This document shows, piece after piece, positions 599-52,306 of a stretch of 64,000 nucleotides of DNA. Numbering within the stretch: the first letter of the stretch is position 1; every line of letters starts with the position of its first letter. The notes beneath the pieces are model-generated. The model saw only the letters and a program-made list of their open reading frames with translations. It searched no databases and was not told the origin of the DNA. The stretch is taken from assembly GCA_963797635.1 (NCBI GenBank), contig CAWCPZ010000010.1, positions 204,909 to 268,908 on the forward strand. The letters are read 5' to 3'. Source of the stretch: an uncultured Actinomycetes bacterium (GTDB lineage: Bacteria; Actinomycetota; UBA4738; HRBIN12). A program made the position numbers and the translations under genes.

Positions 599-1379
599 CG
601 TCGGCCTTCTGCCGGGGGAGGACGCCGGGCACGGCCAGCAGGGCGATCGTGGCGAGCAGCACCGGCTCGGCGTCCGGCCAGGTGAGCGGGAACGTCGACG
701 GATGGAGGCCGCCACGCCCGGTGAACGCCGCCACCATGAACACCCCCGCCGCCACCAGGGCGCACACGGTCATGACCACGGCACCCGTGGACCATCGCGC
801 CGGCCGGTAGCGCGACCGTCGCCCGCGGCCGTGGCCCCGCGCGTCCATGCTCTCGGCGAGGGTCACGGCCTCGTCCATCCCGGTCTCCAACACGGGGACG
901 GCGAGCGCGGGGAGGGTTCGCCAGCCGGCGGTGCGCAGGCCCCGCATGCGTTGGGCCTCACGCACCTGGCCCACCATGGCGATCGTGCGCGGGGCGATCG
1001 AGAGCGCGAGCGCCGCCGCGAGCGCGGGCTCGTGGAACCGGCGCGGCGCCAACCGCACCACGCCGAACGGATCGGTCACCGCGTTGAAGGTGCCGAACAC
1101 CACCAGCAGGGTGGCGAGCCGCGCACCTTCCAGCGCCGCGAACGCCACGCTGCTGGCGTCGACCGTCCCGAAGAACACCAGCGCCGTGCGCACCGCCATC
1201 GTCACCAGCCCTGCGATCGCGAAGACCCGGAAGGAGCGAGCCATCGGCCCCGGGATCCGCTGCGCGGCGTAGACGAACCACGCCACCGCCACGATCATCG
1301 CCAGGTAGAACGGATCGGTCGTGGTGAACGTCACCAGCCCGGCGCAGGTCGCCCACACGAGCCAGGCCGCCGGGTGCAT
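594..1379 (-). CDS. energy-coupling factor transporter transmembrane protein EcfT (CbiQ family)
   Basis: 261-aa polytopic membrane protein with the EcfT-like C-terminal motif ...ESMDARGHG. Its stop overlaps the start of the downstream ATPase, as expected for coupled ECF T and A genes. Confidence 0.75.
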   Translation of the reverse strand: MHPAAWLVWATCAGLVTFTTTDPFYLAMIVAVAWFVYAAQRIPGPMARSFRVFAIAGLVTMAVRTALVFFGTVDASSVAFAALEGARLATLLVVFGTFNAVTDPFGVVRLAPRRFHEPALAAALALSIAPRTIAMVGQVREAQRMRGLRTAGWRTLPALAVPVLETGMDEAVTLAESMDARGHGRGRRSRYRPARWSTGAVVMTVCALVAAGVFMVAAFTGRGGLHPSTFPLTWPDAEPVLLATIALLAVPGVLPRQKADG

Positions 1380-1384
1380 CCTGC

Positions 1385-2290
1385 TATCCGCCTCCGCGGG
1401 AGATCTGTCGCCGTCGCAGGAACCAGCCGCCCGCGCCCAGCGCGGCGACCGCCACGAGGGCCAGCAGGGCGCCCATCGGAGGGCCGCCGCCGCGCGTCGT
1501 CGGCGACGCCGGCCGCCAGCGCGGTCACGGGCGAGGCCTCCACGACCTCACCGGTGGACGGATCCACCTGGGGGGAACGGTCCTTGGCGTCGTCTCCGTG
1601 GGACCCGTTCGGACCGGAGGACCCGTGGGGGGACGCGGACGCGTCGGTGCCGGGCGTCGACGTCGCACCGTCGGGTCCCGAACCGGTTCCTCCGGCGGTC
1701 CCGCCGTTCCCGTCGCCGTGCCCGCCGGTTCCACCGCCGTTGCCGTCACCGTCGCCACCTCCGCCGGGCGACGGTGGAGGCGTCGGTGACGGGGTCGAGT
1801 CCTTGCAGACGTCGTCGAACCCGAGCGCGGGCGGAGCGGCGTGCGTGGTGCCCGAGTCGCCCGAGCCCCACACCCACCCTTCCATGTCGCCGTCACCGAT
1901 CGAGGCCGAACCCGCCCCCGAACCGGCCCAGCTCCATCCGCCGGAGCCGTTCCCGTGCCAGTACCCCCAGAAATCCGGATAGGAGCCGAAGCAGTCGCCG
2001 CCGCTCGCGCCCACCCCGGCGAGCTGGCACACCGCCTGTCCACCGAACCCGAGCTGGTACTGCAGCCCGAACTGCGAGCCGGCGAGCTGCACCAGGTGGA
2101 TGCCGGTCACGCTCGATGCATCGAGGGCCACGCAATACGTCGTGGTCTGCGACCCCGTGTTCACGACGAGGGCCGCATGCGAGGCGCCGGACGCTTCAGC
2201 GGCGCACGCCGGAGCCGATCCCGCCACCGCCGGCGCCAAGGCCGGGAGGGCGAGGATCAGACCGAACGTGAGCGTCCGCAGGCGACGCAT
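1385..2290 (-). CDS. SCO2322-family secreted Gly/Pro-rich protein with a C-terminal membrane anchor; apparent frameshift near 1470
   Basis: N-terminal signal peptide (MRRLRTLTFGLILALPALAPAVAG), a conserved HAALVVNTGSQTTTYCVALD...FWGYWHG domain, then a Gly/Pro/Thr-rich linker. A neighbouring frame encodes a terminal TM helix (MGALLALVAVAALGAGGWFLRRRQ) followed by a stop, so the printed ORF probably has a 1-nt indel. Confidence 0.55.
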
Positions 2291-2293
2291 GGC

Positions 2294-3292
2294 TCAGCAG
2301 GCCCCCGTCGCCGGCGCCGGCCCCGCGACGGGCCCGCTCAGCGGGAACGGCGTGCGCAACAGCCCGGGGATCGCGCCGATCGTGGCTCCCACGTCGGGAT
2401 CGCCCTTCACGTCGCCGTCCCACGTGTAGGCCCACGCGCCGCATGCCGGGTACTGCAACGTGCGCAACGACTTCAGGCCACCGGTCGGGATCGGCTCGCC
2501 GCCGGCGATGTAGGCCTGGAGCACCAGGCCGGTCGAGTTCGCGTCGGTGGCGATGAACGCGGTCGAGTAGGACCAGCCGTCGTGGCCCGGATCGCGCACC
2601 GTCTCGAAGAACGCGAAGGGGTCCGATCCCCACGATGTGCGGTCAGCGGCAGCCAGCGCCTGCACGACGTAGGAGGTGGAGTTCGAATCCGAGGTGAAGA
2701 AGTCGGTGCCCGAACCGTCGTCGCAGTGGTCGTCGTCCGTGCCGGGCGCGTAGGGGGCATCGTAGGACCACCCACCGTCGGGGCACTGTGCGTCCAGCAG
2801 CCAGCTGGTGACGGACGTGGCGGGCTTGACCCCGGCGGCCTCGATCGCGAGGACGCCGAGCGCCTGATCGAACACCGCCGCGTCATCGATGTGCCCGTCG
2901 TTGCCGATCTGCGAACGGATCGCCTGCAGCAGGTTCGTGCCGCCGAAGGTGCGGGGGTCACGGCCGACGGCCGACGCCGCCATGACCACCTTGGCCTGCA
3001 GGCCCACGCCGGTGACGTTGCCCGCCGCCACCTGGCGGCGGAGGTAGCCGAGCGCCTCGCGCATCGCAGGGCGGCCGGACCCGGTGGCCACGAAGGCCAG
3101 GACCGCGTCGGCGGTCGACCCGATCGGTGAGAACGCCGGGATCGAGCCGTTCGGTCGCTGCATGCCGGCGATGAACCCGGTGCCGCGTTCGGCTCGCTGT
3201 TGATCGGTGAGCGCTGCCGACGCCGATGCGGGAAGCATCACGACAGCCAAGGACAAGCAGGCGGCGACGATGCGCCGAGCGTTCGGGGCCAC
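2294..3292 (-). CDS. prenyltransferase/squalene-oxidase repeat-containing secreted protein (terpenoid-cyclase-like alpha/alpha toroid fold)
   Basis: Start is GTG at 3292, preceded by the RBS GGAAAGGAG. The signal peptide is ...RRIVAACLSLAVVMLPASASA, and the body carries repeated QxxDGGW/GWSY-type motifs typical of prenyltransferase alpha-alpha repeats. The track's 2294..3340 ORF has an N-terminal extension I rejected. Confidence 0.7.
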   Translation of the reverse strand: MAPNARRIVAACLSLAVVMLPASASAALTDQQRAERGTGFIAGMQRPNGSIPAFSPIGSTADAVLAFVATGSGRPAMREALGYLRRQVAAGNVTGVGLQAKVVMAASAVGRDPRTFGGTNLLQAIRSQIGNDGHIDDAAVFDQALGVLAIEAAGVKPATSVTSWLLDAQCPDGGWSYDAPYAPGTDDDHCDDGSGTDFFTSDSNSTSYVVQALAAADRTSWGSDPFAFFETVRDPGHDGWSYSTAFIATDANSTGLVLQAYIAGGEPIPTGGLKSLRTLQYPACGAWAYTWDGDVKGDPDVGATIGAIPGLLRTPFPLSGPVAGPAPATGAC

Positions 3293-3414
3293 GAGTGGCT
3301 CCTTTCCGGGCGTCCATCGCGCCCTCACGGAACGGACCACCCGATGAGGATCGACGTCGGCGCCCGGATCGGCGCCGGCGGCCCGTCCCCGTTCCTCGAG
3401 GGTCGTTCAGCCGA

Positions 3415-3545
3415 TGCGTCGCGCAGGGCGGCCTGGCTCGCACACGTGACGCTGGTGAGCGCCGGTGTGCCTACAGTTGCGGGACAGCGCCGGAATCTGA
3501 CCGGCTTCGCCTCCGCGACGCGGTGTGTTCCGCACGCTAGCAGAC
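3415..3545 (-). ncRNA. cobalamin (B12) riboswitch in the leader of the ECF operon
   Basis: The minus-strand sequence ...GCGGAGGCGAAGCCGGTCAGATTCCGGCGCTGTCCCGCAACTGTAGGCACACCGGCGC...GAGCCAGGCCGCC matches the B12-element core (GGGAA..GGTGnnAnTCC..CnGnCCCGCnACTGT) and the 3' B12 box (GAGCCAGGnnnCC). It sits about 125 nt upstream of the GTG start at 3292, with a GC-rich hairpin (GGCGCCGATCCGGGCGCC) in between. Confidence 0.65.
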
Positions 3546-3733
3546 CCGCGCGGAGGCCCGCCACTCGTGCATGGGTTCACGGTTCCGGCCCGGCATCCGG
3601 ACCCAAGTCCCGACTTTCGACCTAGGGAATCGGGGTATCGCTGGACAGAGCCTCGGGTATAGGTTCGTGCAGAACGCACACGCGAGCCCGGCCCGGAACG
3701 CGGGTCGATCGCCGCGAAAGGAGCTTCTCCGAG

Positions 3734-5434
3734 ATGACCCGATACCTCTGCGTCGACCCGAGCCACACGCTGGGCGGTGAACCCGCTGCCATCGACCTGA
3801 CCGCCCAGGTCCGCCTCGAGCGCGAGTTCCTGCCGCGTGAATCCGCCTATCTCGCCGATTCCGGCGACGTGATCCGCCGGGTGAACGACCTCGGCGAGGT
3901 CGACGGCGCCCTGCGCGCGGCCGCCGTGCGCCGCATCCTCACCGGCACCACCACCCCGCTCGACGCGCCCGTGGTGTTGGTGGCCGGCGACCGGACCGAA
4001 CGCGTGCCCGGCCTCTACGAGATGGACGAACTCCGTCGCAGCGAGCGATCGGTGGCGTCCCTGCTCGATCGGTACGCCCAGACGAGCCTGGCCCGCGAAG
4101 GCTCGGAGGATCTCGTGGTGCTGCGCGATCAGCAGCCGCCCTTGCGACCGGACGGATCCACGGTGCAGCCCGGTCAAGGCCCCACCGTGCAGTCAGCACC
4201 CATCAGCCCCATGGTGGAGACGGTGTCGATCCCGGAGGTCCGGTCGGACGAGGCGATCGTGTTGCCGCAGGGCGTCTACCCCGTGCTCGAACTCGCGACG
4301 CGGCTCGCCGAAGCCGACGTCGAGACCGATTCGCTCGTCGACGTGATCCATGCCACGCCCTCGTACGGCTCGCTCGCCACCGAGGAGTCGCACCGTCCCT
4401 GGCGCGTGATCGTGGAGTGTCCCGTCGCCACCGGCGAACCGTTGACCCGTCACCAGATGATCTTCACGGGCACCGGCGAGACCGAACCCGTCGAGGTGCT
4501 CGGCACGCCCGCCGTCGGCAACGACGTGGTCCTGGACACCGCCGCCTCGAAGGAAGCGGTGATGCCGTTCCCGGCCCGGCGGGCCGAACGCGGTCTGCAG
4601 ATCGCATTGCTGGCTGCCGCGTTGATCGCGGCCGCCGTGCTCATCATCACCTGGATCTCCGGCGGGCTCGCGCTCGCGGTGCGGGAGACCCCCGTGTGGC
4701 TCGGCCTGTCGGTGACCCTGGGCGTCGCCGCGATGGCGGTGGGGTTGGTGGCGCTGGCGTCGCGGTCGGACGCCGAGGGCAACACCAACGACACGTTCGT
4801 GTTGCGCCGCCACTACGCGAGCCGCATCGACATGCTGTGGTACGCCACGCTGGCCACCGCCGTGCTGTTCTCCCTCTCGGTCGCCGCCGGCGTGATCCCG
4901 CCGATCCTGGCGTCCGAGACGCCGGTGCCGTCGGCGGCGATCACGTTCGACGCCGGCCGCGCGCTGGTGACGGCCACGGTGCAGGTCCAGACCCAGGGTC
5001 TGGCCACCGACCAACCGGTCACCGTCCAGATGCGTCAGTACAGCTCCGAGACGAGCAACGGCATCCTCATCGGTCTCGTCACCTCCACCGGCGATCCCTC
5101 CGGGGACACGGTGATCGGGGAGACGGTCTCGCTCGATGCCGGGGCTCGCTACATGAGCGTGCAGGTCATCATGGGCAACGATCCGGTGACGACGTGCACA
5201 CCGCTCGAAGCCGGCGGCCCAGGCTGCACCGTGGTGTCGGTGCCGCCGCTCGGCGCGGGCATCGTGCGGTTGGTGCCGGCCACCTCGGCGCTCGACGTGA
5301 TCGCGGCGACGGAGCCCACGACCAGCCCGGTCGTGCCGACGCCGTCCACCTCGGGCATCCCGACCCCGTCCGCCTCGGTGCCGACCTCGGCCGTCCCGAC
5401 GACGACGCTGAGCCCGTCCGCCTCGCCGTTCTAG
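3734..5434 (+). CDS. hypothetical membrane protein (cytoplasmic N-domain, 2 TM helices, extracytoplasmic domain, Pro/Thr/Ser-rich C-terminal tail)
   Basis: Single uninterrupted 566-aa ORF. Hydrophobic segments lie at about aa 290-340. The C-terminus is TTSPVVPTPSTSGIPTPSASVPTSAVPTTTLSPSASPF. No recognisable catalytic motif. Confidence 0.5.
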   Translation: MTRYLCVDPSHTLGGEPAAIDLTAQVRLEREFLPRESAYLADSGDVIRRVNDLGEVDGALRAAAVRRILTGTTTPLDAPVVLVAGDRTERVPGLYEMDELRRSERSVASLLDRYAQTSLAREGSEDLVVLRDQQPPLRPDGSTVQPGQGPTVQSAPISPMVETVSIPEVRSDEAIVLPQGVYPVLELATRLAEADVETDSLVDVIHATPSYGSLATEESHRPWRVIVECPVATGEPLTRHQMIFTGTGETEPVEVLGTPAVGNDVVLDTAASKEAVMPFPARRAERGLQIALLAAALIAAAVLIITWISGGLALAVRETPVWLGLSVTLGVAAMAVGLVALASRSDAEGNTNDTFVLRRHYASRIDMLWYATLATAVLFSLSVAAGVIPPILASETPVPSAAITFDAGRALVTATVQVQTQGLATDQPVTVQMRQYSSETSNGILIGLVTSTGDPSGDTVIGETVSLDAGARYMSVQVIMGNDPVTTCTPLEAGGPGCTVVSVPPLGAGIVRLVPATSALDVIAATEPTTSPVVPTPSTSGIPTPSASVPTSAVPTTTLSPSASPF

Positions 5435-5446
5435 CGGTGTCTCGGA

Positions 5447-6307
5447 TCAGGTGAGGCGCGGCGGTTCCTCGCCGCCGGCTTCGCCTTGGAGGAAGCGCTC
5501 GATCTCGGTGGCGAGTTCGTCGCCGGTCGGCACGCCCTCGCTGCCCGTCATCGACTCCAACCGGTCCAGGTAGGACCGCGCGTCCTCGTCGGCGTCGACG
5601 GCGGCGTCCAGACGCGTCCGCTGGTCGATCGCGGTCTCGGCCAGTTCGCCGAGCGGCACCTCGATGCCCAGGTGACGATCGAGCTGGGCCAGCAACGCGA
5701 TGGCGCCCGGCGCGAACGGTCCGCCCACGTAGTGGGGGACCTGCGCGTAGAACCCCACGGTGGGCAGGCCCGAGGACTGCATCGACATCTCCACCACGGA
5801 CAATGCGGCCGCCGGGACCCGGAGCAAACCGGCGGGGCCCTGTTCGACGTCGTCGGCCAGGAGGCCTTCGGCGGAGGCCGTGCCGAACACCGACACCGCG
5901 CGCGTGTGCGGGACCGCGGCGGGGATCGCGCCCAGGCTGATCCACTGCAGGGCGCCGAGCCGCAGCGCGATCTCGGACGCCGATGCCGCGAGTTCGCGCC
6001 AGCGGAAGTCCGGCTCGGGTCCCCGCAGCACCAGCACGTCGCGTCCGTCGATCGTGCGGCGTCCCACGGAGATCTCCGGCCAATCCAGATGGGTGAGCGT
6101 GCCGTCCACCACGTCCAGCACGGGACGCCGGGAGCGGTAGTCGAACACCGCGTCGGGATCGATCGTGGCGATCGTCTCGGCGCCTTCCGCCAGTCGTTCC
6201 GCCGCAGCCGATGCCGCGCCGCCCGCGTCGATCCAGCCGTCGAAGGCGCCCACGAGCACCGGCGCCACCAGGGCGGGGACATCGTCGCGGAGTCGGAAGA
6301 GCGTCAC
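5447..6307 (-). CDS. PAC2 (proteasome assembly chaperone 2-like) family protein
   Basis: MTLFRL...PVLVGAFDGWIDAGGAA... is the N-terminal signature of actinobacterial PAC2-family proteins. 286 aa. Confidence 0.75.
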   Translation of the reverse strand: MTLFRLRDDVPALVAPVLVGAFDGWIDAGGAASAAAERLAEGAETIATIDPDAVFDYRSRRPVLDVVDGTLTHLDWPEISVGRRTIDGRDVLVLRGPEPDFRWRELAASASEIALRLGALQWISLGAIPAAVPHTRAVSVFGTASAEGLLADDVEQGPAGLLRVPAAALSVVEMSMQSSGLPTVGFYAQVPHYVGGPFAPGAIALLAQLDRHLGIEVPLGELAETAIDQRTRLDAAVDADEDARSYLDRLESMTGSEGVPTGDELATEIERFLQGEAGGEEPPRLT

Positions 6308-6368
6308 CCCGACAGCTTAGGTCGTCGCGCCGCGAGCGCCGCAACCCGCCTGTGATGGGTGGGCTAGG

Positions 6369-6983
6369 GTGAACGGCTCCATGGTGTCCTATCCCGCCGA
6401 CCGCGGCTTCGACGATTCCTACCTGGGCGTGCCGCCCTGGGACATCGGCCGGCCCCAGCGGGAGGTCGAGGCGCTGATCGCTGCGGGCCGGTTCGAGGGG
6501 CCGGTACTCGATGCCGGGTGCGGCACGGGCGAGAACGCGCTCGCGATGGCCCGGCAGGGCGAGGCGGTGTTGGGCATCGACGCCTCGCCGCGGGCGATCG
6601 GCAAGGCGATCGACAAGGCACGCGAGCGCGGCTTGGAGCGCGCCGAGTTCCTGGTGGCGGACGTGTTCGCGCTCGAAGGGCTCGGCCGCACGTTCGACTC
6701 GGCGCTCGACTGCGGCCTGTTCCACGTGTTCGACGACCACGAACGGCCGGTGTACGCGGCGAGCCTGGCCGGCGTGGTGAACCCCGGGGGCACGTTGCAC
6801 CTGCTCTGCTTCAGCGAGCGCGAGCCGCTGGGATGGGGTCCCCGGCGCGTCACCGAGGCCGAGCTCCGCGCGACGTTCGACGACGGATGGTCGGTGACCG
6901 AGATCGTCCCGGCGGTGTTCGAGACCAACCGGGACGACGGCGACGTCCGGGCCTGGAGGGCGACGATCCGCCGAACGGGGTAA
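6369..6983 (+). CDS. class I SAM-dependent methyltransferase
   Basis: Carries the VLDAGCGTGENAL glycine-rich SAM-binding motif I and an acidic motif II (LVADVF). 204 aa, GTG start. Confidence 0.8.
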   Translation: MNGSMVSYPADRGFDDSYLGVPPWDIGRPQREVEALIAAGRFEGPVLDAGCGTGENALAMARQGEAVLGIDASPRAIGKAIDKARERGLERAEFLVADVFALEGLGRTFDSALDCGLFHVFDDHERPVYAASLAGVVNPGGTLHLLCFSEREPLGWGPRRVTEAELRATFDDGWSVTEIVPAVFETNRDDGDVRAWRATIRRTG

Positions 6984-7018
6984 GGGAAGGCCGCGCATGT
7001 GCCGATGCCCTGGGACAC

Positions 7019-7798
7019 ATGGCTCTTCGACGTCGGATCCGGTGTGCTTCCGAACGCGGCAGCGTGGCCCAGACGCTCGCGCTCGCGATGCTGGTGTTCG
7101 TGATCGCGGCCGGTGCCGGGCTGCTGGGCGCGATGGGCCGACTCGATCGACCCTCGGCGAGCGCTCCTTCGCCCGTGCCGGTGATCGACGAGGATGACGC
7201 CGTCGGACTCCTCCGGGTGCATTGCATCGAGCGCGGCGCCGGCATCGAGGTTCCCGCCGTCAACGCCAAGGCCGACGGGGTCCACGTGGCGATCGAGGGG
7301 ACCGAGGGCCAGAAGGTGTTCTTCCAGTCGGATGCGGGACTGGTCTACCCGATGCAGTTGCGTGAGAACGGGGGAACGTTCGAGCTCCCGCTGCCTCCGG
7401 GCTCGTGGCACGCCACGTGCGCTCCCGAGGGCTCGAGTGCACCGGCCCCGAGCTCCGGCGCCGGGTTCGTCGTGACCGACCCGGCATCCCGCTACGTGTC
7501 CTACCAGCCCGAGTGCCCGCTCGACGAGACCGGCCAGCAGCTCAACGGAGAACTTCCCACCAGTTTCGTCCAGGATCAGGACACGGCCATCCGCGAGGTC
7601 CTCGCGGACGACGGCCTCCTCGAGGGTGACCTCATCGAACGCGCCGGCTACCGCAAGTCGATCCCGGGCCAGGACCCGCCGAACCCGATGGCGTTCCGCG
7701 TGATGCGTGGCGACACCGTCGTGGGCGCGTTCGAAGCGATGGAGGGACCCGATGGGTGGACCTACTTCATGGGCGGGTGCCTGAACTCCGAAGGCTGA
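7019..7798 (+). CDS. hypothetical secreted/membrane-anchored protein
   Basis: I moved the start to the ATG at 7019 (MALRRRIRC...TLALAMLVFVIAAGAGLLGA signal-anchor), because the track ORF 6518..7798 would overlap the methyltransferase. Contains conserved Cys residues and no known domain. Confidence 0.5.
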   Translation: MALRRRIRCASERGSVAQTLALAMLVFVIAAGAGLLGAMGRLDRPSASAPSPVPVIDEDDAVGLLRVHCIERGAGIEVPAVNAKADGVHVAIEGTEGQKVFFQSDAGLVYPMQLRENGGTFELPLPPGSWHATCAPEGSSAPAPSSGAGFVVTDPASRYVSYQPECPLDETGQQLNGELPTSFVQDQDTAIREVLADDGLLEGDLIERAGYRKSIPGQDPPNPMAFRVMRGDTVVGAFEAMEGPDGWTYFMGGCLNSEG

Positions 7799-7805
7799 TC
7801 CGTGT

Positions 7806-8171
7806 TCACCGGTCGCGTTCGGCCACGATCGTCCGCAGCGTCGACATCGCGTTCATCGCCGGTGGGAACCCCGCGATCACCGCCGTCTGCATGATGACCT
7901 CGCCGAGTTCCTGCGGCGTGAGGCCTGCTTTGAGCGAGGCCCGCAGGTGCTGAGGGAGCTGGGCGGACCGGCCGAGCGACACCAGCGCCGCCACCGTCAC
8001 GAGTTCCCGGTCGCGCGTCGAGAGTTCGCTGCGGCGGTAGACGTCGCCGTAGACGACCTCGACGATCATGCGGCCCAGGTCGCCGAGCCCCTCGACGGCG
8101 GCCAGCGCCTTCTCGTCGTGGACCTCCAGGAACCGCGCGCGGCCGCGTTCGTATCGATCGTCGTCGCTCAT
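7806..8171 (-). CDS. carboxymuconolactone decarboxylase (CMD/AhpD-like) family protein
   Basis: 121-aa protein. The stretch ...DRELVTVAALVSLGRSAQLPQHLRASLKAGLTPQELGEVIMQTAVIAGFP is typical of the CMD/AhpD core helix. Confidence 0.75.
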   Translation of the reverse strand: MSDDDRYERGRARFLEVHDEKALAAVEGLGDLGRMIVEVVYGDVYRRSELSTRDRELVTVAALVSLGRSAQLPQHLRASLKAGLTPQELGEVIMQTAVIAGFPPAMNAMSTLRTIVAERDR

Positions 8172-8222
8172 GGGTGGACGCTACCGTCTCGGGTCGGTCC
8201 CGTCCTGCGCTAGGGTCGGGCC

Positions 8223-8693
8223 ATGTCGACGGACTTCGTTCCCGAAGGGTTCACGCCGCCGGACGGCCTGATCGCCGAGGCGTTCGTCCTGGAGCCCCTC
8301 GGGCCGCAGCACAACGAGGCCGATCACGCCGCGTGGATGTCGAGCATCGAACACATCCACGCGAGCCCCGGGTTCTCCGACGACTTCGACGACGACCCCG
8401 ACCCCTGGCCGCGGCCGATGAGCCTGGAGCAGAACCTGTCCGATCTCGAGCAACACGCGAAGGATTTCCAGGACCGTGTGGGATTCACGTACACGGTGCT
8501 CGATCCCGTGGATCGCGACGTGATCGGGTGCGTCTACCTCTACCCGTCGCCCCTCGACGGCGTGGACGTGCGTGCCCGATCCTGGGTGCGGCGCTCGCGC
8601 GCCGAGCTGGACGAGCCGCTTCGGCGTGCGGTCCGGGCATGGCTCGGCGGCCCGGAGTGGCCGTTCGAGCGGATCGACTACGCCGCGGGCTGA
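8223..8693 (+). CDS. small GNAT-like N-acetyltransferase family protein (conserved actinobacterial)
   Basis: 156 aa containing ...FVLEPLGPQHNEADHAAWMSSIEHIHASPGF, a motif recurrent in about 160-aa actinobacterial proteins annotated as GNAT-like. Confidence 0.5.
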   Translation: MSTDFVPEGFTPPDGLIAEAFVLEPLGPQHNEADHAAWMSSIEHIHASPGFSDDFDDDPDPWPRPMSLEQNLSDLEQHAKDFQDRVGFTYTVLDPVDRDVIGCVYLYPSPLDGVDVRARSWVRRSRAELDEPLRRAVRAWLGGPEWPFERIDYAAG

Positions 8694-24063: not shown

Positions 24064-24853
24064 TCAGCCGAAGAACTCCTCCAACACGGGAGCCATGGCC
24101 TCGTCCGTGACGCCGTGCGTCTGGCCCTCGAGCGTTCGGTAGCGGGCGTTGGGCAGGACCGTCGCCAACGCACGTGCCGCGTTGCGCGCCCAATCGGGAC
24201 TCGCGCCGCCGTCCATCACCAGGGTCGGCATCGTCACGGTGGCCCACCGCTCACCCTGGAGCGGGCGGCCCGTCATCGTGTCGCCCATGACCCTGCCGTC
24301 GTAGACCAGGGTGTGCGCCATCGCTTCCATGGCCGGCCAGAACGGCGCGCTCCGCATCGACGCCACGGTGTCGGCCGGCGCCGCCGCCCCCGTGGTCATG
24401 AAGTACTCGACGGCATCGCCTCGCCGGTCCCCGGCCACGAGATCGGTGAGCTGTGCCACGTAGTCCGGCGGGAGCGGGGGGCGGCTGTCGTCCACGACGA
24501 ACGGCGGTTCGTAGAGCGCGAGCCGATCGATCGGGAGGCCCCGGGATGCGGCTTCGAGCGCGAGGACGGCGCCGGAGGAGTGCCCGTACACGCACGCCCG
24601 GCCGCCGGCGACCTCGAGCACGGCCGCGAGGTCCTCCACCTCACGCTCGACGGCGTACGGCGCGGTGTCGCCGCTCGATCCACGTCCCACGACGGTCGTA
24701 GACGAACACGTCGCACCGCGCGGACAGGAGGGTCGCGAGCGGTGACATCGCCGCGGCGGTCGTGAGCGCGCCACCCACGAACACGACCGCGGGACCGGCG
24801 CCCGATCGATCGAACGCGATCGTGGCGCCGTCCCGCGACCGGACGTCGTTCAC
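24064..24853 (-). CDS. alpha/beta hydrolase; frameshifted near 24690
   Basis: The N-terminal part (MNDVRSRDGATIAFDRSGAGPAVVFVGGA...CDVFVYDRRG) and the rest (RGSSGDTAPYAVEREVEDLAAV...VYGHSSGAVLALEAA...) are in adjacent frames. Deleting one G in cgtcgtggga restores the frame. It is a paralog of the gene at 32836..33612. Confidence 0.65.
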
Positions 24854-32835: not shown

Positions 32836-33612
32836 TCAGGCGGCGAAGAACGCCTCCAGCGCAGGCGTGATGACCGAGGGATCGACGTCGTGCGTCTGCC
32901 CCTCCAGCAGACCGTGCTGTCCGTTCGGGAGCAGGTCGGCCATCGCTCGGGCCGTCTGATCCATCCACGGGAAGCTCGCGCTCCCCGCCAGGACCAGCGT
33001 GGGGGTCGAGACCGACGCGACGAGCTCGGTGGGCATGGTGTAGTCGCCCATCACGGTGGCGTCGTAGGCCAACGTGTGCGCCAGGGCCTCCGTGGGACCC
33101 CAGAACGGCGCGTTCTTCGCCTGGGCGACGAACTCGTCGGGCATGCCCACCACCTTCGACATGAAGAACTCGACCGCGTCGCCACGACGATCCTCGGCCA
33201 CGAGTCGCCGGTAGGTCTCCGCCGTGTCGGCCGGAGGGCGCGGGAGCCCCTCCGGGATGTAGGGCGGCTCCCACAGGGCGAGCTTCGTGATGCTGTCGAG
33301 CTTCGCCGCCGCCTTCAGCGCCAGCACCGCCCCCGAGGACGTGCCGTACAGGAACGCCGAGCCCCCGGCCGCGTCGACGACCGCGGCGATGTCTTCGATC
33401 TCACGGTCCACGGCGTAGGGCTGGGTGTCACCGCTGTCGCCGCGACCACGGCGGTCGTAGTTGAAGGCCGTGTGGTCGGCCGCCAGCAGCTCGGCAACCG
33501 GTGCGTTCGACATGCGGTCCACCGACCCGCCGCACACCAGGACCACGGGAGGGCCTTCGCCGAGCCGGTCGTAGCCGATCGCCGTGCCGTCGTTCGATGT
33601 CACGTGTTCCAT
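32836..33612 (-). CDS. alpha/beta hydrolase (paralog of 24064..24853)
   Basis: Start at ATG 33612 (MEHVTSNDGTAIGYDRLGEGPPVVLVCGG...YDRRGRGDSGDTQPYAVDREIEDIAAVVDAAGGSAFLYGTSSGAVLALKAA). Nucleophile elbow GTSSG. Confidence 0.75.
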   Translation of the reverse strand: MEHVTSNDGTAIGYDRLGEGPPVVLVCGGSVDRMSNAPVAELLAADHTAFNYDRRGRGDSGDTQPYAVDREIEDIAAVVDAAGGSAFLYGTSSGAVLALKAAAKLDSITKLALWEPPYIPEGLPRPPADTAETYRRLVAEDRRGDAVEFFMSKVVGMPDEFVAQAKNAPFWGPTEALAHTLAYDATVMGDYTMPTELVASVSTPTLVLAGSASFPWMDQTARAMADLLPNGQHGLLEGQTHDVDPSVITPALEAFFAA

Positions 33613-50028: not shown

Positions 50029-50601
50029 ATGGGGATCACGCAGTACTACACGGCAACCACGATCGATGGCTACATCGCCGACGAGCACAACTCGTTGAGC
50101 TGGCTCTTCGAGGTGCCGGCGGGCGACGACGAGGTGGGGCATGAGGTGCGGTTCGCCGCGTTCATGGCCGACGTCGGGGCGATCGTGATGGGCTCGACCA
50201 CCTTCGAGTGGGTCGTCGAGCACGAACAGCTCCTCGAGCACCCGGAGAAGTGGCGTGCGTTCTACGGCGACACCCCGACCTGGGTGTTCACGCATCGCGA
50301 CCTCCCGAGCTTCGAGGGTGCGGACATCCGGTTCGTGCAGGGCGACGTTCGACCGATCCATGCGGCGATGGTCGAGGCGGCCGGCGACAAGAACATCTGG
50401 ATCGTCGGCGGTGGGGAACTCGTGGGGCAGTTCGCCGATGCGGGATTGCTCGACGAGATCCAGCTGAGCATCGCGCCGGTGACGCTGGGTGCAGGCGCGC
50501 CGCTCCTACCGAGACGCCTGCTCGCGTCCGACCTCACGCTGGTGAACCTGGAACGGCAGGGGCAGTTCGTGTCCGCGACCTACCGGGTCGGGAGCGCGTA
50601 G
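50029..50601 (+). CDS. dihydrofolate reductase family protein (RibD C-terminal domain)
   Basis: Start at ATG 50029 (MGITQYYTATTIDGYIADEHNSLSWL...IVMGSTTFEW...IWIVGGGELVGQFADAGLLDEIQLSIAPVTLGAG). Confidence 0.75.
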   Translation: MGITQYYTATTIDGYIADEHNSLSWLFEVPAGDDEVGHEVRFAAFMADVGAIVMGSTTFEWVVEHEQLLEHPEKWRAFYGDTPTWVFTHRDLPSFEGADIRFVQGDVRPIHAAMVEAAGDKNIWIVGGGELVGQFADAGLLDEIQLSIAPVTLGAGAPLLPRRLLASDLTLVNLERQGQFVSATYRVGSA

Positions 50602-50602
50602 G

Positions 50603-51034
50603 TCACTCGGCGCCGAAGCGACCGCGGGCATCCTCCGGGATCAATGGCTTGTCGGCGCGCACCCGCAACTCCTGCACGGCCCACGTGTTGCCGTCGGGGT
50701 CGGCGAAGCCGAAGAACGTGCCGCCGTCGTCCGGGCTGAACTGCATGATCTCGCTCGCCTCCACGCCGCGGTCGAGCAGTTCCTGCCGAGCGGCCTGTGC
50801 ATCGGGCACGACGAGCTGCAGCCCTTTCATCGAACCGGGCTCCATCTCGCGTTGCGGCGGCAGGTCGCCGAACACGATCGAACAGCCCGAGCCGTTCGGC
50901 GTGAGTTGCACCACGTGCATCTGCTCGTTCTTCGTGTCGTGGTCGAGGTGGAAGCCCACCTTGTCGCGGTAGAACGCGATCGATGCGTCGATGTCGCTGA
51001 CGGGAAGCACGACGACTTCAAGTGTCCAGTCCAT
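50603..51034 (-). CDS. VOC family protein (paralog of 42379..42888)
   Basis: Starts MDWTLEVVVLPVSDIDASIAFYRDKVGFHLDHD... Confidence 0.7.
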   Translation of the reverse strand: MDWTLEVVVLPVSDIDASIAFYRDKVGFHLDHDTKNEQMHVVQLTPNGSGCSIVFGDLPPQREMEPGSMKGLQLVVPDAQAARQELLDRGVEASEIMQFSPDDGGTFFGFADPDGNTWAVQELRVRADKPLIPEDARGRFGAE

Positions 51035-51062
51035 GGGTCTCCTTCATCGATGGTCGCTCGTG

Positions 51063-51830
51063 CTACCGAGCGTACGTCACGCGGCTGGTTGTCGCTGCCC
51101 GGTATCCCAGGTACACGGTGCCGTTGCGGAAGCGACGCTCGTCCAGCAGCTCGAGGTCCAGCCGAACGTCGTCGGGGAGCCAAGGGTTGCCACCGCCCAC
51201 GATCACGGGGGCGACGAGGATCCGGAACTCGTCGACCAACCCGGCGCGGATCGGGTAGCGCCTGATTCACCGAGCTTGTGGCTTCCCGGTACCCCAGGTG
51301 CACCGTGCCGTTGCGGAAGCGACGCTCGTCCAGCAACTCGAGGTCCAGCCGGACGTCATCGGGGAAGCCAAGGGGTGCCACCGCCCACGATCACGGGCGC
51401 GAGAGGCACCGGTAGCGTCCACTAACCCTGCGCGGATGGCGTGGGCAGCGAGGCCGGGGCCACCGATGCCGATGTCCGCGCCGGACGATGCCTTCATCTC
51501 CCGGATGGCGGCGGGATCGAACACGGACTCGAGACGCGTTCGCTCGCTGCGAACCTCCGTGAGCGTCGTGGAGAACACCACCTTGTCCGCCGCGCGCCAG
51601 ATCTGCTGGTAGTCCCGCAGGTACGGCGCCTCGGCGGCCAGGTCCATCGTCTCCCAGGCCACCATCACCTCGTACATGCGTCGCCCGTACAGGTAGGTCC
51701 CGACCGGTCGTTCGAGATCGTTGACGAAGGTGTGCACCTCATCGTCGGGCTCGGCCCAGTCGAAGTTCCCGTCGCGGTCGGCGATGTAGCCGTCGAGCGA
51801 GGCGAGCACCGAGTAGATCAGGTCAGCCAT
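51063..51830 (-). pseudogene. dihydrofolate reductase family (RibD C-terminal domain) gene interrupted by a degenerate tandem copy of its own 3' end
   Basis: The body (MADLIYSVLASLDGYIADRDGNFDW...IGIGGPGLAAHA) runs to about 51440 and then reads through a decayed copy of the C-terminal segment to a stop at 51267. An intact, in-frame copy of the C-terminus (IRAGLVDEFRILVAPVIVGGGNPWLPDDVRLDLELLDERRFRNGTVYLGYRAATTSRVTYAR*) follows at 51063..51260. Confidence 0.55.
51092..51440. repeat. imperfect tandem direct repeat (2 x about 170 bp, roughly 90% identity over the first 115 bp) covering the 3' coding end of the DHFR-family gene
   Basis: Copy 1 starts near 51092 with ccggtatcccaggtacacggtgccgttgcggaagcgacgctcgtccagcagctcgaggtccagccgaacgtcgtcgggga.... 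Copy 2 starts near 51277 with ccggtaccccaggtgcaccgtgccgttgcggaagcgacgctcgtccagcaactcgaggtccagccggacgtcatcgggga.... Copy 2 carries indels that break the frame. Confidence 0.6.
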
Positions 51831-51841
51831 GGATGAGGGTC

Positions 51842-52306
51842 CTACGAGTGTGGGTCCGGGGCCCACCCCGTGCGCTCGACCGACCACGTGAGCTCGCCGG
51901 TCGTGCACGTGCCGCCGCCCTGTGCGTAGCTCATCTCCAGCGTTCCTTCGCCGTGGCGCCACCGCAGGGTGCCGGCCACCAGGTCGCCGCTCTCGGTGAT
52001 CGCGAACGAGCGGTCGTGGTCCAGCCGGCGTCCGGGATAGGCCAGCCAGGAGATGCCGATCTCATCACCGCCGCCTTCGTCGCACGTGAACGCCAGCCGC
52101 TCGAAACCGAGCTTGCGCAAGAAGAGCCGTCCGTTGTCCCGCCGCAGGACGCTCGCGACGACGGTGTCGCCGGTCGAGAGTTCGCCGCGGTACTTGATGA
52201 TCCTGGCGGCGGACGCGGTCGCCGGCAGCGCGATCAGCACCAGCAACGCCGCGGCGATGCCGACCGTGGCGCGTCGTGCGAACGTGCGGTCAGTCTTGCG
52301 CTGCAT
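51842..52306 (-). CDS. hypothetical secreted protein
   Basis: Start at ATG 52306 (MQRKTDRTFARRATVGIAAALLVLIALPATASAARIIKYRGEL...), which has a signal peptide. About 130-aa mature domain with conserved Cys residues. Lies immediately upstream of the DHFR-family gene on the same strand. Confidence 0.5.
   Translation of the reverse strand: MQRKTDRTFARRATVGIAAALLVLIALPATASAARIIKYRGELSTGDTVVASVLRRDNGRLFLRKLGFERLAFTCDEGGGDEIGISWLAYPGRRLDHDRSFAITESGDLVAGTLRWRHGEGTLEMSYAQGGGTCTTGELTWSVERTGWAPDPHS

Follow-up and report, generated by a model that had tools for sequence, protein, structure and literature searches.

A RibD_C-family gene with a diverged tandem 3' end in an actinobacterial metagenome assembly: a possible case of two strain haplotypes written in series

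Results

The RibD_C gene and its doubled 3' end

The window, by which we mean the whole stretch of 64,000 nucleotides that was analysed (GenBank contig CAWCPZ010000010.1, from an uncultured actinomycete), carries on its minus strand a RibD_C (PF01872) gene in which the final ~165 nt of coding sequence are doubled head to tail. We set the start of this gene at ATG 51830 because intact orthologues are 188 amino acids long and begin at this codon. The gene body (51438–51830, minus strand, 393 nt) runs into a proximal copy of the repeat at 51437–51276, which is followed, at a unit offset of 186 nt, by a distal copy at 51251–51089 on the same strand. When the copies were aligned with gaps, 144 of the 164 columns matched and the remainder consisted of 17 substitutions and 3 one-nucleotide indels, which amounts to 88% identity. 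A blastn comparison of copy with copy gave E = 1e-52, and a repeat search of the window recovered the locus as direct-repeat families of 90 nt and 41 nt with spacings of 187 and 188 nt. It is the sole tandem repeat of this kind in the 64 kb. Thus, the repeat at the 3' end is real and goes beyond a chance match. Tandem Repeats Finder reported nothing at the locus, which was expected since fewer than two full copies are present, and the window holds no third copy of the repeat unit. Elsewhere in the window, positions 24280–24441 and 33043–33204 form a 162-nt direct repeat of 72% identity, 8.8 kb apart, which probably reflects paralogous genes.

The reading frame of the body halts at TGA 51269–51267. 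The proximal copy (51276–51437) is frameshifted by single-base indels at 51416–51360, and it extends past the coding end into its own stop codon and 9–14 nt of the far end of a convergent gene. The distal copy is intact and, with its remaining codons (51063–51251, minus strand), continues in frame with the body to TAG 51065–51063; the distance from stop to stop is 204 nt, compared with the unit offset of 186 nt. An extra C at 51083 in the distal copy, relative to loci L003 and L007, lengthens the product from 188 to 193 amino acids. The initial annotation, made from the letters alone, had described a DHFR-family gene with a frameshifted proximal and an intact, in-frame distal 3' end, and our alignments and frame analysis bear this description out. 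Several of its details had to be changed. The gene is present but does not extend to 51962, as the GTG there is merely the start of the longest open reading frame, and the ~165 bp said to be doubled at about 90% identity are indeed a repeat, with a measured identity of 88%. The indels, which had been called compensating, sum to −1 inside the repeat and do not compensate; the body frame arrives at the original stop solely through 2 further nucleotides that are missing in the tail.

A protein reconstructed from the body and the distal copy scored 65.9 bits against Pfam PF01872 (cut-off 24.1; E = 5.6e-18) and covered profile positions 3–196 of 197. The open reading frame as written scored 36.2 bits and covered positions 3–155 only. 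By its passing of the gathering score, the gene is a member of the RibD_C/DHFR family (PF01872), for which an NADPH-dependent reductase function is predicted; the source names of its relatives are ‘dihydrofolate reductase (family protein)’. A search with the protein of the repaired gene found many relatives of 87–96% identity on metagenomic contigs, among them intact proteins of 188–193 amino acids.

Sequence on the far side of the repeat

Between the two copies lies a short tail (51252–51275, minus strand) that alignments with loci L001 and L005 assign to a haplotype that we call type A. It contains, in order, the last codons with 2 nt missing, TGA 51269–51267, a 1-nt spacer, TCAGGCGCT at 51265–51257, and ACCCG at 51256–51252, bases whose origin is ambiguous. 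The junction in the window therefore consists of TCAGGCGCT, ACCCG and ATCCGCGCC, and the exact junction string is TCAGGCGCTACCCGATCCGCGCC. TCAGGCGCT is the reverse-complemented end of a convergent RibD_C gene with a TGA stop. The resident convergent gene of the window ends differently, in CTACGCGCT with a TAG stop (50601–50609).

Beyond the distal copy comes a gene for a 143-amino-acid glyoxalase-family protein (50603–51034, minus strand), the product of which is identical to one that 6 other contigs encode and that has the Pfam record PF00903 there. It is cargo of a second haplotype, type B, and is absent from the type-A loci L001 and L005. The convergent RibD_C paralogue (50029–50601, plus strand; 190 amino acids, hereafter RibD_C-190; PF01872 E = 3.3e-17) aligns to L001, L002 and other loci and forms the right-hand anchor of both haplotypes. 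It is 30% identical to the gene under study. The order RibD_C gene, then glyoxalase-family gene, occurs twice on the minus strand within 3.5 kb (51830–50603 and 49344–48296). Between the pairs, protein identity is as low as 24% and 23%, and the pairing is therefore either ancient or independent in origin.

Arrangements in related loci

We carried out the comparison with orthologous loci that the initial annotation had proposed, using 15 related loci of 88–98% identity. In all 15 the 3' end occurs once, and two main arrangements can be distinguished. In type A (L001 and L005), the gene stop is one base from the stop of the convergent 190-amino-acid RibD_C paralogue. In type B (L002, L003, L004, L006, L207, L209, L211 and the short-read genome L007), the 143-amino-acid glyoxalase gene sits between the convergent RibD_C genes. 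L213 has a PAS-domain gene in this slot, L008 (P0023) carries a deletion that fuses the RibD_C gene to the last glyoxalase codons, and P0142 is a 345-amino-acid fusion protein. Judged by sequence, the type-A arrangement appears to have arisen by a precise deletion, from one stop-codon GTGA motif to the other, of the segment that carries the glyoxalase gene. Whichever reading of the tandem holds, the slot between the convergent RibD_C genes is a hot spot of gain, loss and fusion at the level of strains. Compared across L001–L008 and L207–L214, the slot at window positions 50602–51066 is empty or holds the 143-amino-acid glyoxalase gene or the PAS-domain gene.

Other differences among the relatives were seen nearby. 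L002, L004, L006, L207, L209 and L211 carry an insert of a guanylate cyclase and an SBP_bac_5 gene upstream of the RibD_C gene, between it and the DUF3291/hypothetical genes; this insert is absent from the window. L001 has an extra gene of 252 amino acids (6577–7335) between RibD_C-190 and the GNAT acetyltransferase gene, which is also absent from the window. The C-termini of the 193- and 188-amino-acid proteins differ through 1-nt indels a few codons before the stop, and L002 acquires the same extended frame as the window through a different inserted C (about 6555). These 1-nt indels may be real variants or homopolymer errors.

The tandem structure was absent from all related loci examined, and its truncated product, P0033, is a cluster of one member. 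A metagenome scan with the loose pattern TACCGGG N20–45 ATCCGCGCNGGNTT gave, among the matches listed, chance hits only, save for the known 17.8-kb contig.

Haplotype affinities of the two copies

The body and the two copies of its 3' end do not have the same nearest relatives. The body aligns to L001 without gaps at 97.5% identity, compared with 89–94% to type-B loci, and thus represents a type-A allele. The nearest alleles of the proximal copy are of type A (95.2% identity for L005b, 92% for L001), compared with 84–87% for type-B loci, and over its last 100 nt the copy reaches 97–98% with L001 and L005. The closest match of the distal copy is L002 (98.8%), followed by L004, L207 and L211 (98.1–98.2%), whereas identity to type A is 86–93%. 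This copy represents the type-B 3' coding end. The left arm of the window (57241 to 51247) aligns to L001 until 19 nt beyond the L001 stop codon, whereas type-B homology starts exactly at 51251, in the middle of the gene in L002, and then continues unbroken for more than 6 kb. In the window, the left flank is followed by the body, the A branch in full and the B branch in full, and then by the right flank. Both branches exist separately in the population as alternative haplotypes, one in the type-A loci L001 and L005 and the other in the type-B loci. The distance between the two haplotype classes is 7–14%.

Of the 17 substitutions that separate the copies, ten affect third codon positions; the copies therefore diverged as working alleles in separate lineages and not in place. 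Furthermore, the flank that was duplicated is not the resident flank: the proximal tail reads TGA-A-TCAGGCGCT and the resident RibD_C-190 end reads TGA-C-CTACGCGCT. As the TCAGGCGCT terminus is unlike the CTACGCGCT of the window itself, the unit was not copied from resident sequence. We had considered TCAGGCGCT as a mark specific to type A and rejected it, because it is also present in some type-B loci (L007, L209 and L212); all that can be said is that the gene end in the window is a different one. Taken at the level of sequence, these comparisons show that two haplotypes stand in series and that resident sequence was not duplicated in place.

Distribution of the indels

Between the window and L001 there are no indels over ~3.6 kb of coding sequence (55060 to 51440), followed by 5 events within 51414–51256. 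The few other indels between the two are almost all intergenic. An alignment of the proximal copy to the natural allele nearest to it shows 5 single-base indels in a stretch of ~55 nt and 2 or 3 more in the 25-nt tail; 6–8 indels are crowded into two patches at the edges of the copy. The centre of the copy, ~80 nt long (51359–51277), contains no indel and at most 1–2 substitutions relative to L001, and the 393-nt body is likewise free of indels. In the proximal copy, indels are about as frequent as substitutions or more so (5 to ~8 against L001, 5 to 2 against L005b), whereas the ratio in the flanks is about 1 to 25. Nine intact natural alleles, on the other hand, align without gaps over 549 nt. 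This pattern, next to a clean flank, matches the local loss of consensus quality that a false heterotype duplication would show at the duplicated piece.

One possible cause, that the noisy patch is a hypervariable stretch, was dropped. In sliding windows over the nine intact alleles, pi was 0.14 at the patch, only mildly above the 0.09 average for the gene, and parts of the body that are just as diverse show no such noise. Simple mixed-allele noise alone therefore does not explain the pattern. Nor is it that of a gene ‘caught mid-decay’, as the initial annotation had put it, since a pseudogene that decays neutrally would have gathered indels in the body and in the middle of the unit as well.

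Assembly context

The close relatives all belong to a single batch of ENA assemblies, whose contigs are named in the style of Flye (contig_N), and the genome records with contig_N naming are MFD bins of Microflora Danica, a long-read project. In that project, Nanopore reads were assembled with Flye --meta, followed by a single round of Medaka, and high microdiversity was reported for the soils (PMC12313526). Types A and B co-occur in one related sample, ERZ25039510, as L005 and L002, respectively. Apart from the tandem, the window is clean consensus, and both of its flanks are nearest to the same relative, L213 (97.5–98.5%).

Some of the related assemblies have irregularities of their own. L005 (ENA ERZ25039510 contig_23149, 389–398 kb of 410,671) contains at 1046–8564 a 7.5-kb foldback that is 97.4% self-complementary, with 164 mismatches and 24 gap openings, and has its centre at about 4805 inside RibD_C-190. 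The arms of the foldback carry different natural alleles of the 188-amino-acid gene, and from its sequence the foldback appears to be a head-to-head misjoin of two strains at the same locus. In P0016 (from L004), P0027 (from L005) and P0136, the 3' half of the RibD_C gene is frameshifted; a later shift restores the frame in P0027, whereas P0016 and P0136 stay shifted through to the stop. Several neighbouring genes are fragmented in L004 and L005. This points to frequent indel errors in the assemblies of P0016, P0027 and P0136.

Discussion

We believe, with modest confidence, that the tandem is a false heterotype duplication, in which two strain haplotypes of one locus were written one after the other in the consensus of a mixed-strain long-read metagenome. 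Four observations lead us to favour this explanation: the two copies match different haplotypes, the proximal copy ends in a foreign RibD_C-190 terminus, the relatives have a single copy, and the indels are confined to the edges. The excess of third-position substitutions, the presence of both types in ERZ25039510, the two-strain foldback in L005 and the frameshifts in P0016, P0027 and P0136 point the same way. Judging from the relatives, the source assembly would have been made from Nanopore reads only with Flye and Medaka, and molecules of both the A and the B type would have been in the sample. We propose that the join arose as the assembler switched haplotypes across the ~660-nt glyoxalase indel. 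The frameshifts would then be consensus noise, as reads from molecules without the A branch may have been misplaced onto its edges, with its centre covered by A-type reads alone. If so, there is no split gene, and the true genome would have either the A or the B arrangement with an intact 188-amino-acid gene. The initial annotation had rightly flagged an assembly artefact as a possibility, but it took the divergence of roughly 10% as evidence against one. We would reverse this argument, because 7–14% is the distance between the haplotypes and is what a mixed-strain artefact would give.

There are points against an artefact. Flye and Medaka would usually drop one of two branches and not place both in series. 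Since the rest of the window is clean and L213 is the closest relative of both flanks, nothing suggests that the strain changes wholesale at the junction. The 186-nt offset is a multiple of three and keeps the stop in frame, which would be a one-in-three coincidence. In addition, diversity at the noisy patch (pi 0.14) is not especially high.

The main rival is that the structure is a real recombination scar, which we regard as possible although on balance unlikely. On this view, a type-A strain that had lost the glyoxalase gene would have acquired type-B DNA from a relative. Homologous recombination in or beyond RibD_C-190 would have integrated the right end of this DNA, and its left end would have been joined illegitimately just behind the resident stop, by homology-facilitated illegitimate recombination or by end joining. 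If the donor DNA started within the donor's version of the gene, the resident 3' end would now be followed by another one that is silent. The frameshifts in the proximal copy would be later real mutations, or consensus errors from cross-mapping strains. Such a scar predicts the haplotype identities of the copies and the retained type-A stop and tail equally well, and it fits an otherwise clean window whose flanks keep the same relative. Homology-facilitated illegitimate recombination is an established process (PMC3240628), the slot between the convergent genes is a natural hot spot of rearrangement, where two independent fusions or deletions were found, and an imperfect 8/10 microhomology, CGCTSCCSAC, lies beside both breakpoints. 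However, the resident gene would have been intact just after the event, so that the 6–8 edge-clustered indels need a separate cause. There is no clean microhomology, of the 3–10 nt that an illegitimate joint would use, at the joint itself (ACCCG|ATCC), where 4–5 nt are of ambiguous origin. Both breakpoints lie where the haplotypes stop or resume being alignable, which biology does not predict, and the junction was found in no other related contig. Moreover, 163-nt direct repeats of 88% identity would tend toward recombinational loss. No comparable diverged tandem repeats were found in 822 kb of related loci, a null result that is evidence neither for the recurrence of such an artefact nor for the commonness of such scars.

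The initial annotation had favoured a duplication of the gene's own 3' end, perhaps an old segmental one. A tandem duplication in situ, through slippage or unequal crossing-over, that was old, 12% diverged and decaying would account for the head-to-tail layout, the in-frame offset of 186 nt and the frameshifted proximal copy. It is nevertheless very improbable. Each copy is 95–99% identical to an allele of a different strain (L002 at 98.8% for the distal copy, L005b at 95% for the proximal one) and just 88% to its partner. The bias of the substitutions to codon position 3 (10/17) and the terminus of the neighbouring gene in the proximal tail, which is not the resident one, also stand against it. 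Furthermore, none of the 15 related loci (88–98% identity) carries the duplication; this excludes an old event, and a young event cannot explain the divergence. We give still less credence to gene conversion from a nearby RibD_C paralogue, which had also been suggested, or to the template and variable repeat pair of a diversity-generating retroelement. There are paralogues within 2 kb, and a repeat of the 3' end just downstream resembles a variable/template layout. Yet the paralogues are only 24% and 30% identical at the protein level and about 60–65% at the DNA level, near the range of shuffled controls, so neither is the match for the proximal copy that the initial annotation had wished to see checked. 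A retroelement is further contradicted by the lack of a third unit copy in the window and by substitutions that are not adenine-specific, as those at A number 3/17 when counted on the distal copy and 4/17 on the proximal copy. The distal copy is, besides, a normal type-B coding end.

If the tandem is indeed two strain alleles in series, the divergence between the copies measures the diversity of the population and not the age of a duplication. It would then serve as a warning that what looks like a gene split by a diverged tandem copy may, in metagenome-assembled genomes, be strain alleles placed one after the other, which should be scored neither as pseudogenes nor as gene gains. If, on the other hand, the scar is true, a glyoxalase gene was regained by one-sided illegitimate recombination, which left a silent alternative 3' end behind the resident gene. 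One recombination between the 163-nt copies would then swap the C-terminus and put the gene directly upstream of the glyoxalase gene. The locus would represent a natural halfway stage in the gain of a cassette by an uncultured soil actinobacterium, of interest for gene flow at the level of strains, although no concept would be changed.

The gene itself compares readily with its family. The body joined to either 3' end makes a full-length member of PF01872, 87–96% identical to the intact proteins of 188–193 amino acids, whereas the frame as written departs from the profile at position 155 of 197. The scar, if real, would have its counterpart in homology-facilitated illegitimate recombination, which is known from Acinetobacter, Streptococcus pneumoniae and Pseudomonas stutzeri and from conjugation in E. 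coli (PMC3240628). There, too, homology anchors the incoming fragment at one end only, the other end being joined illegitimately, and the recipient and donor versions of a segment can come to lie side by side, differing by the divergence of donor and recipient. The locus described here differs from that process in that the joint has no clean microhomology and the clustered indels are left unexplained. False heterotype duplication, to which we would tentatively assign the structure, is a documented class of assembly error when the duplicates are adjacent (Ko et al., 2022, Genome Biol., PMC9516828). As in the documented cases, two divergent haplotypes would have been kept next to each other in one sequence, mimicking the duplication of a gene or part of a gene; such errors arise at indels or where divergence between the haplotypes is greatest. 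The documented cases concern the parental copies of diploid vertebrates, whereas here the haplotypes would be those of strains that co-occur in a soil metagenome, and the piece is only 186 nt long.
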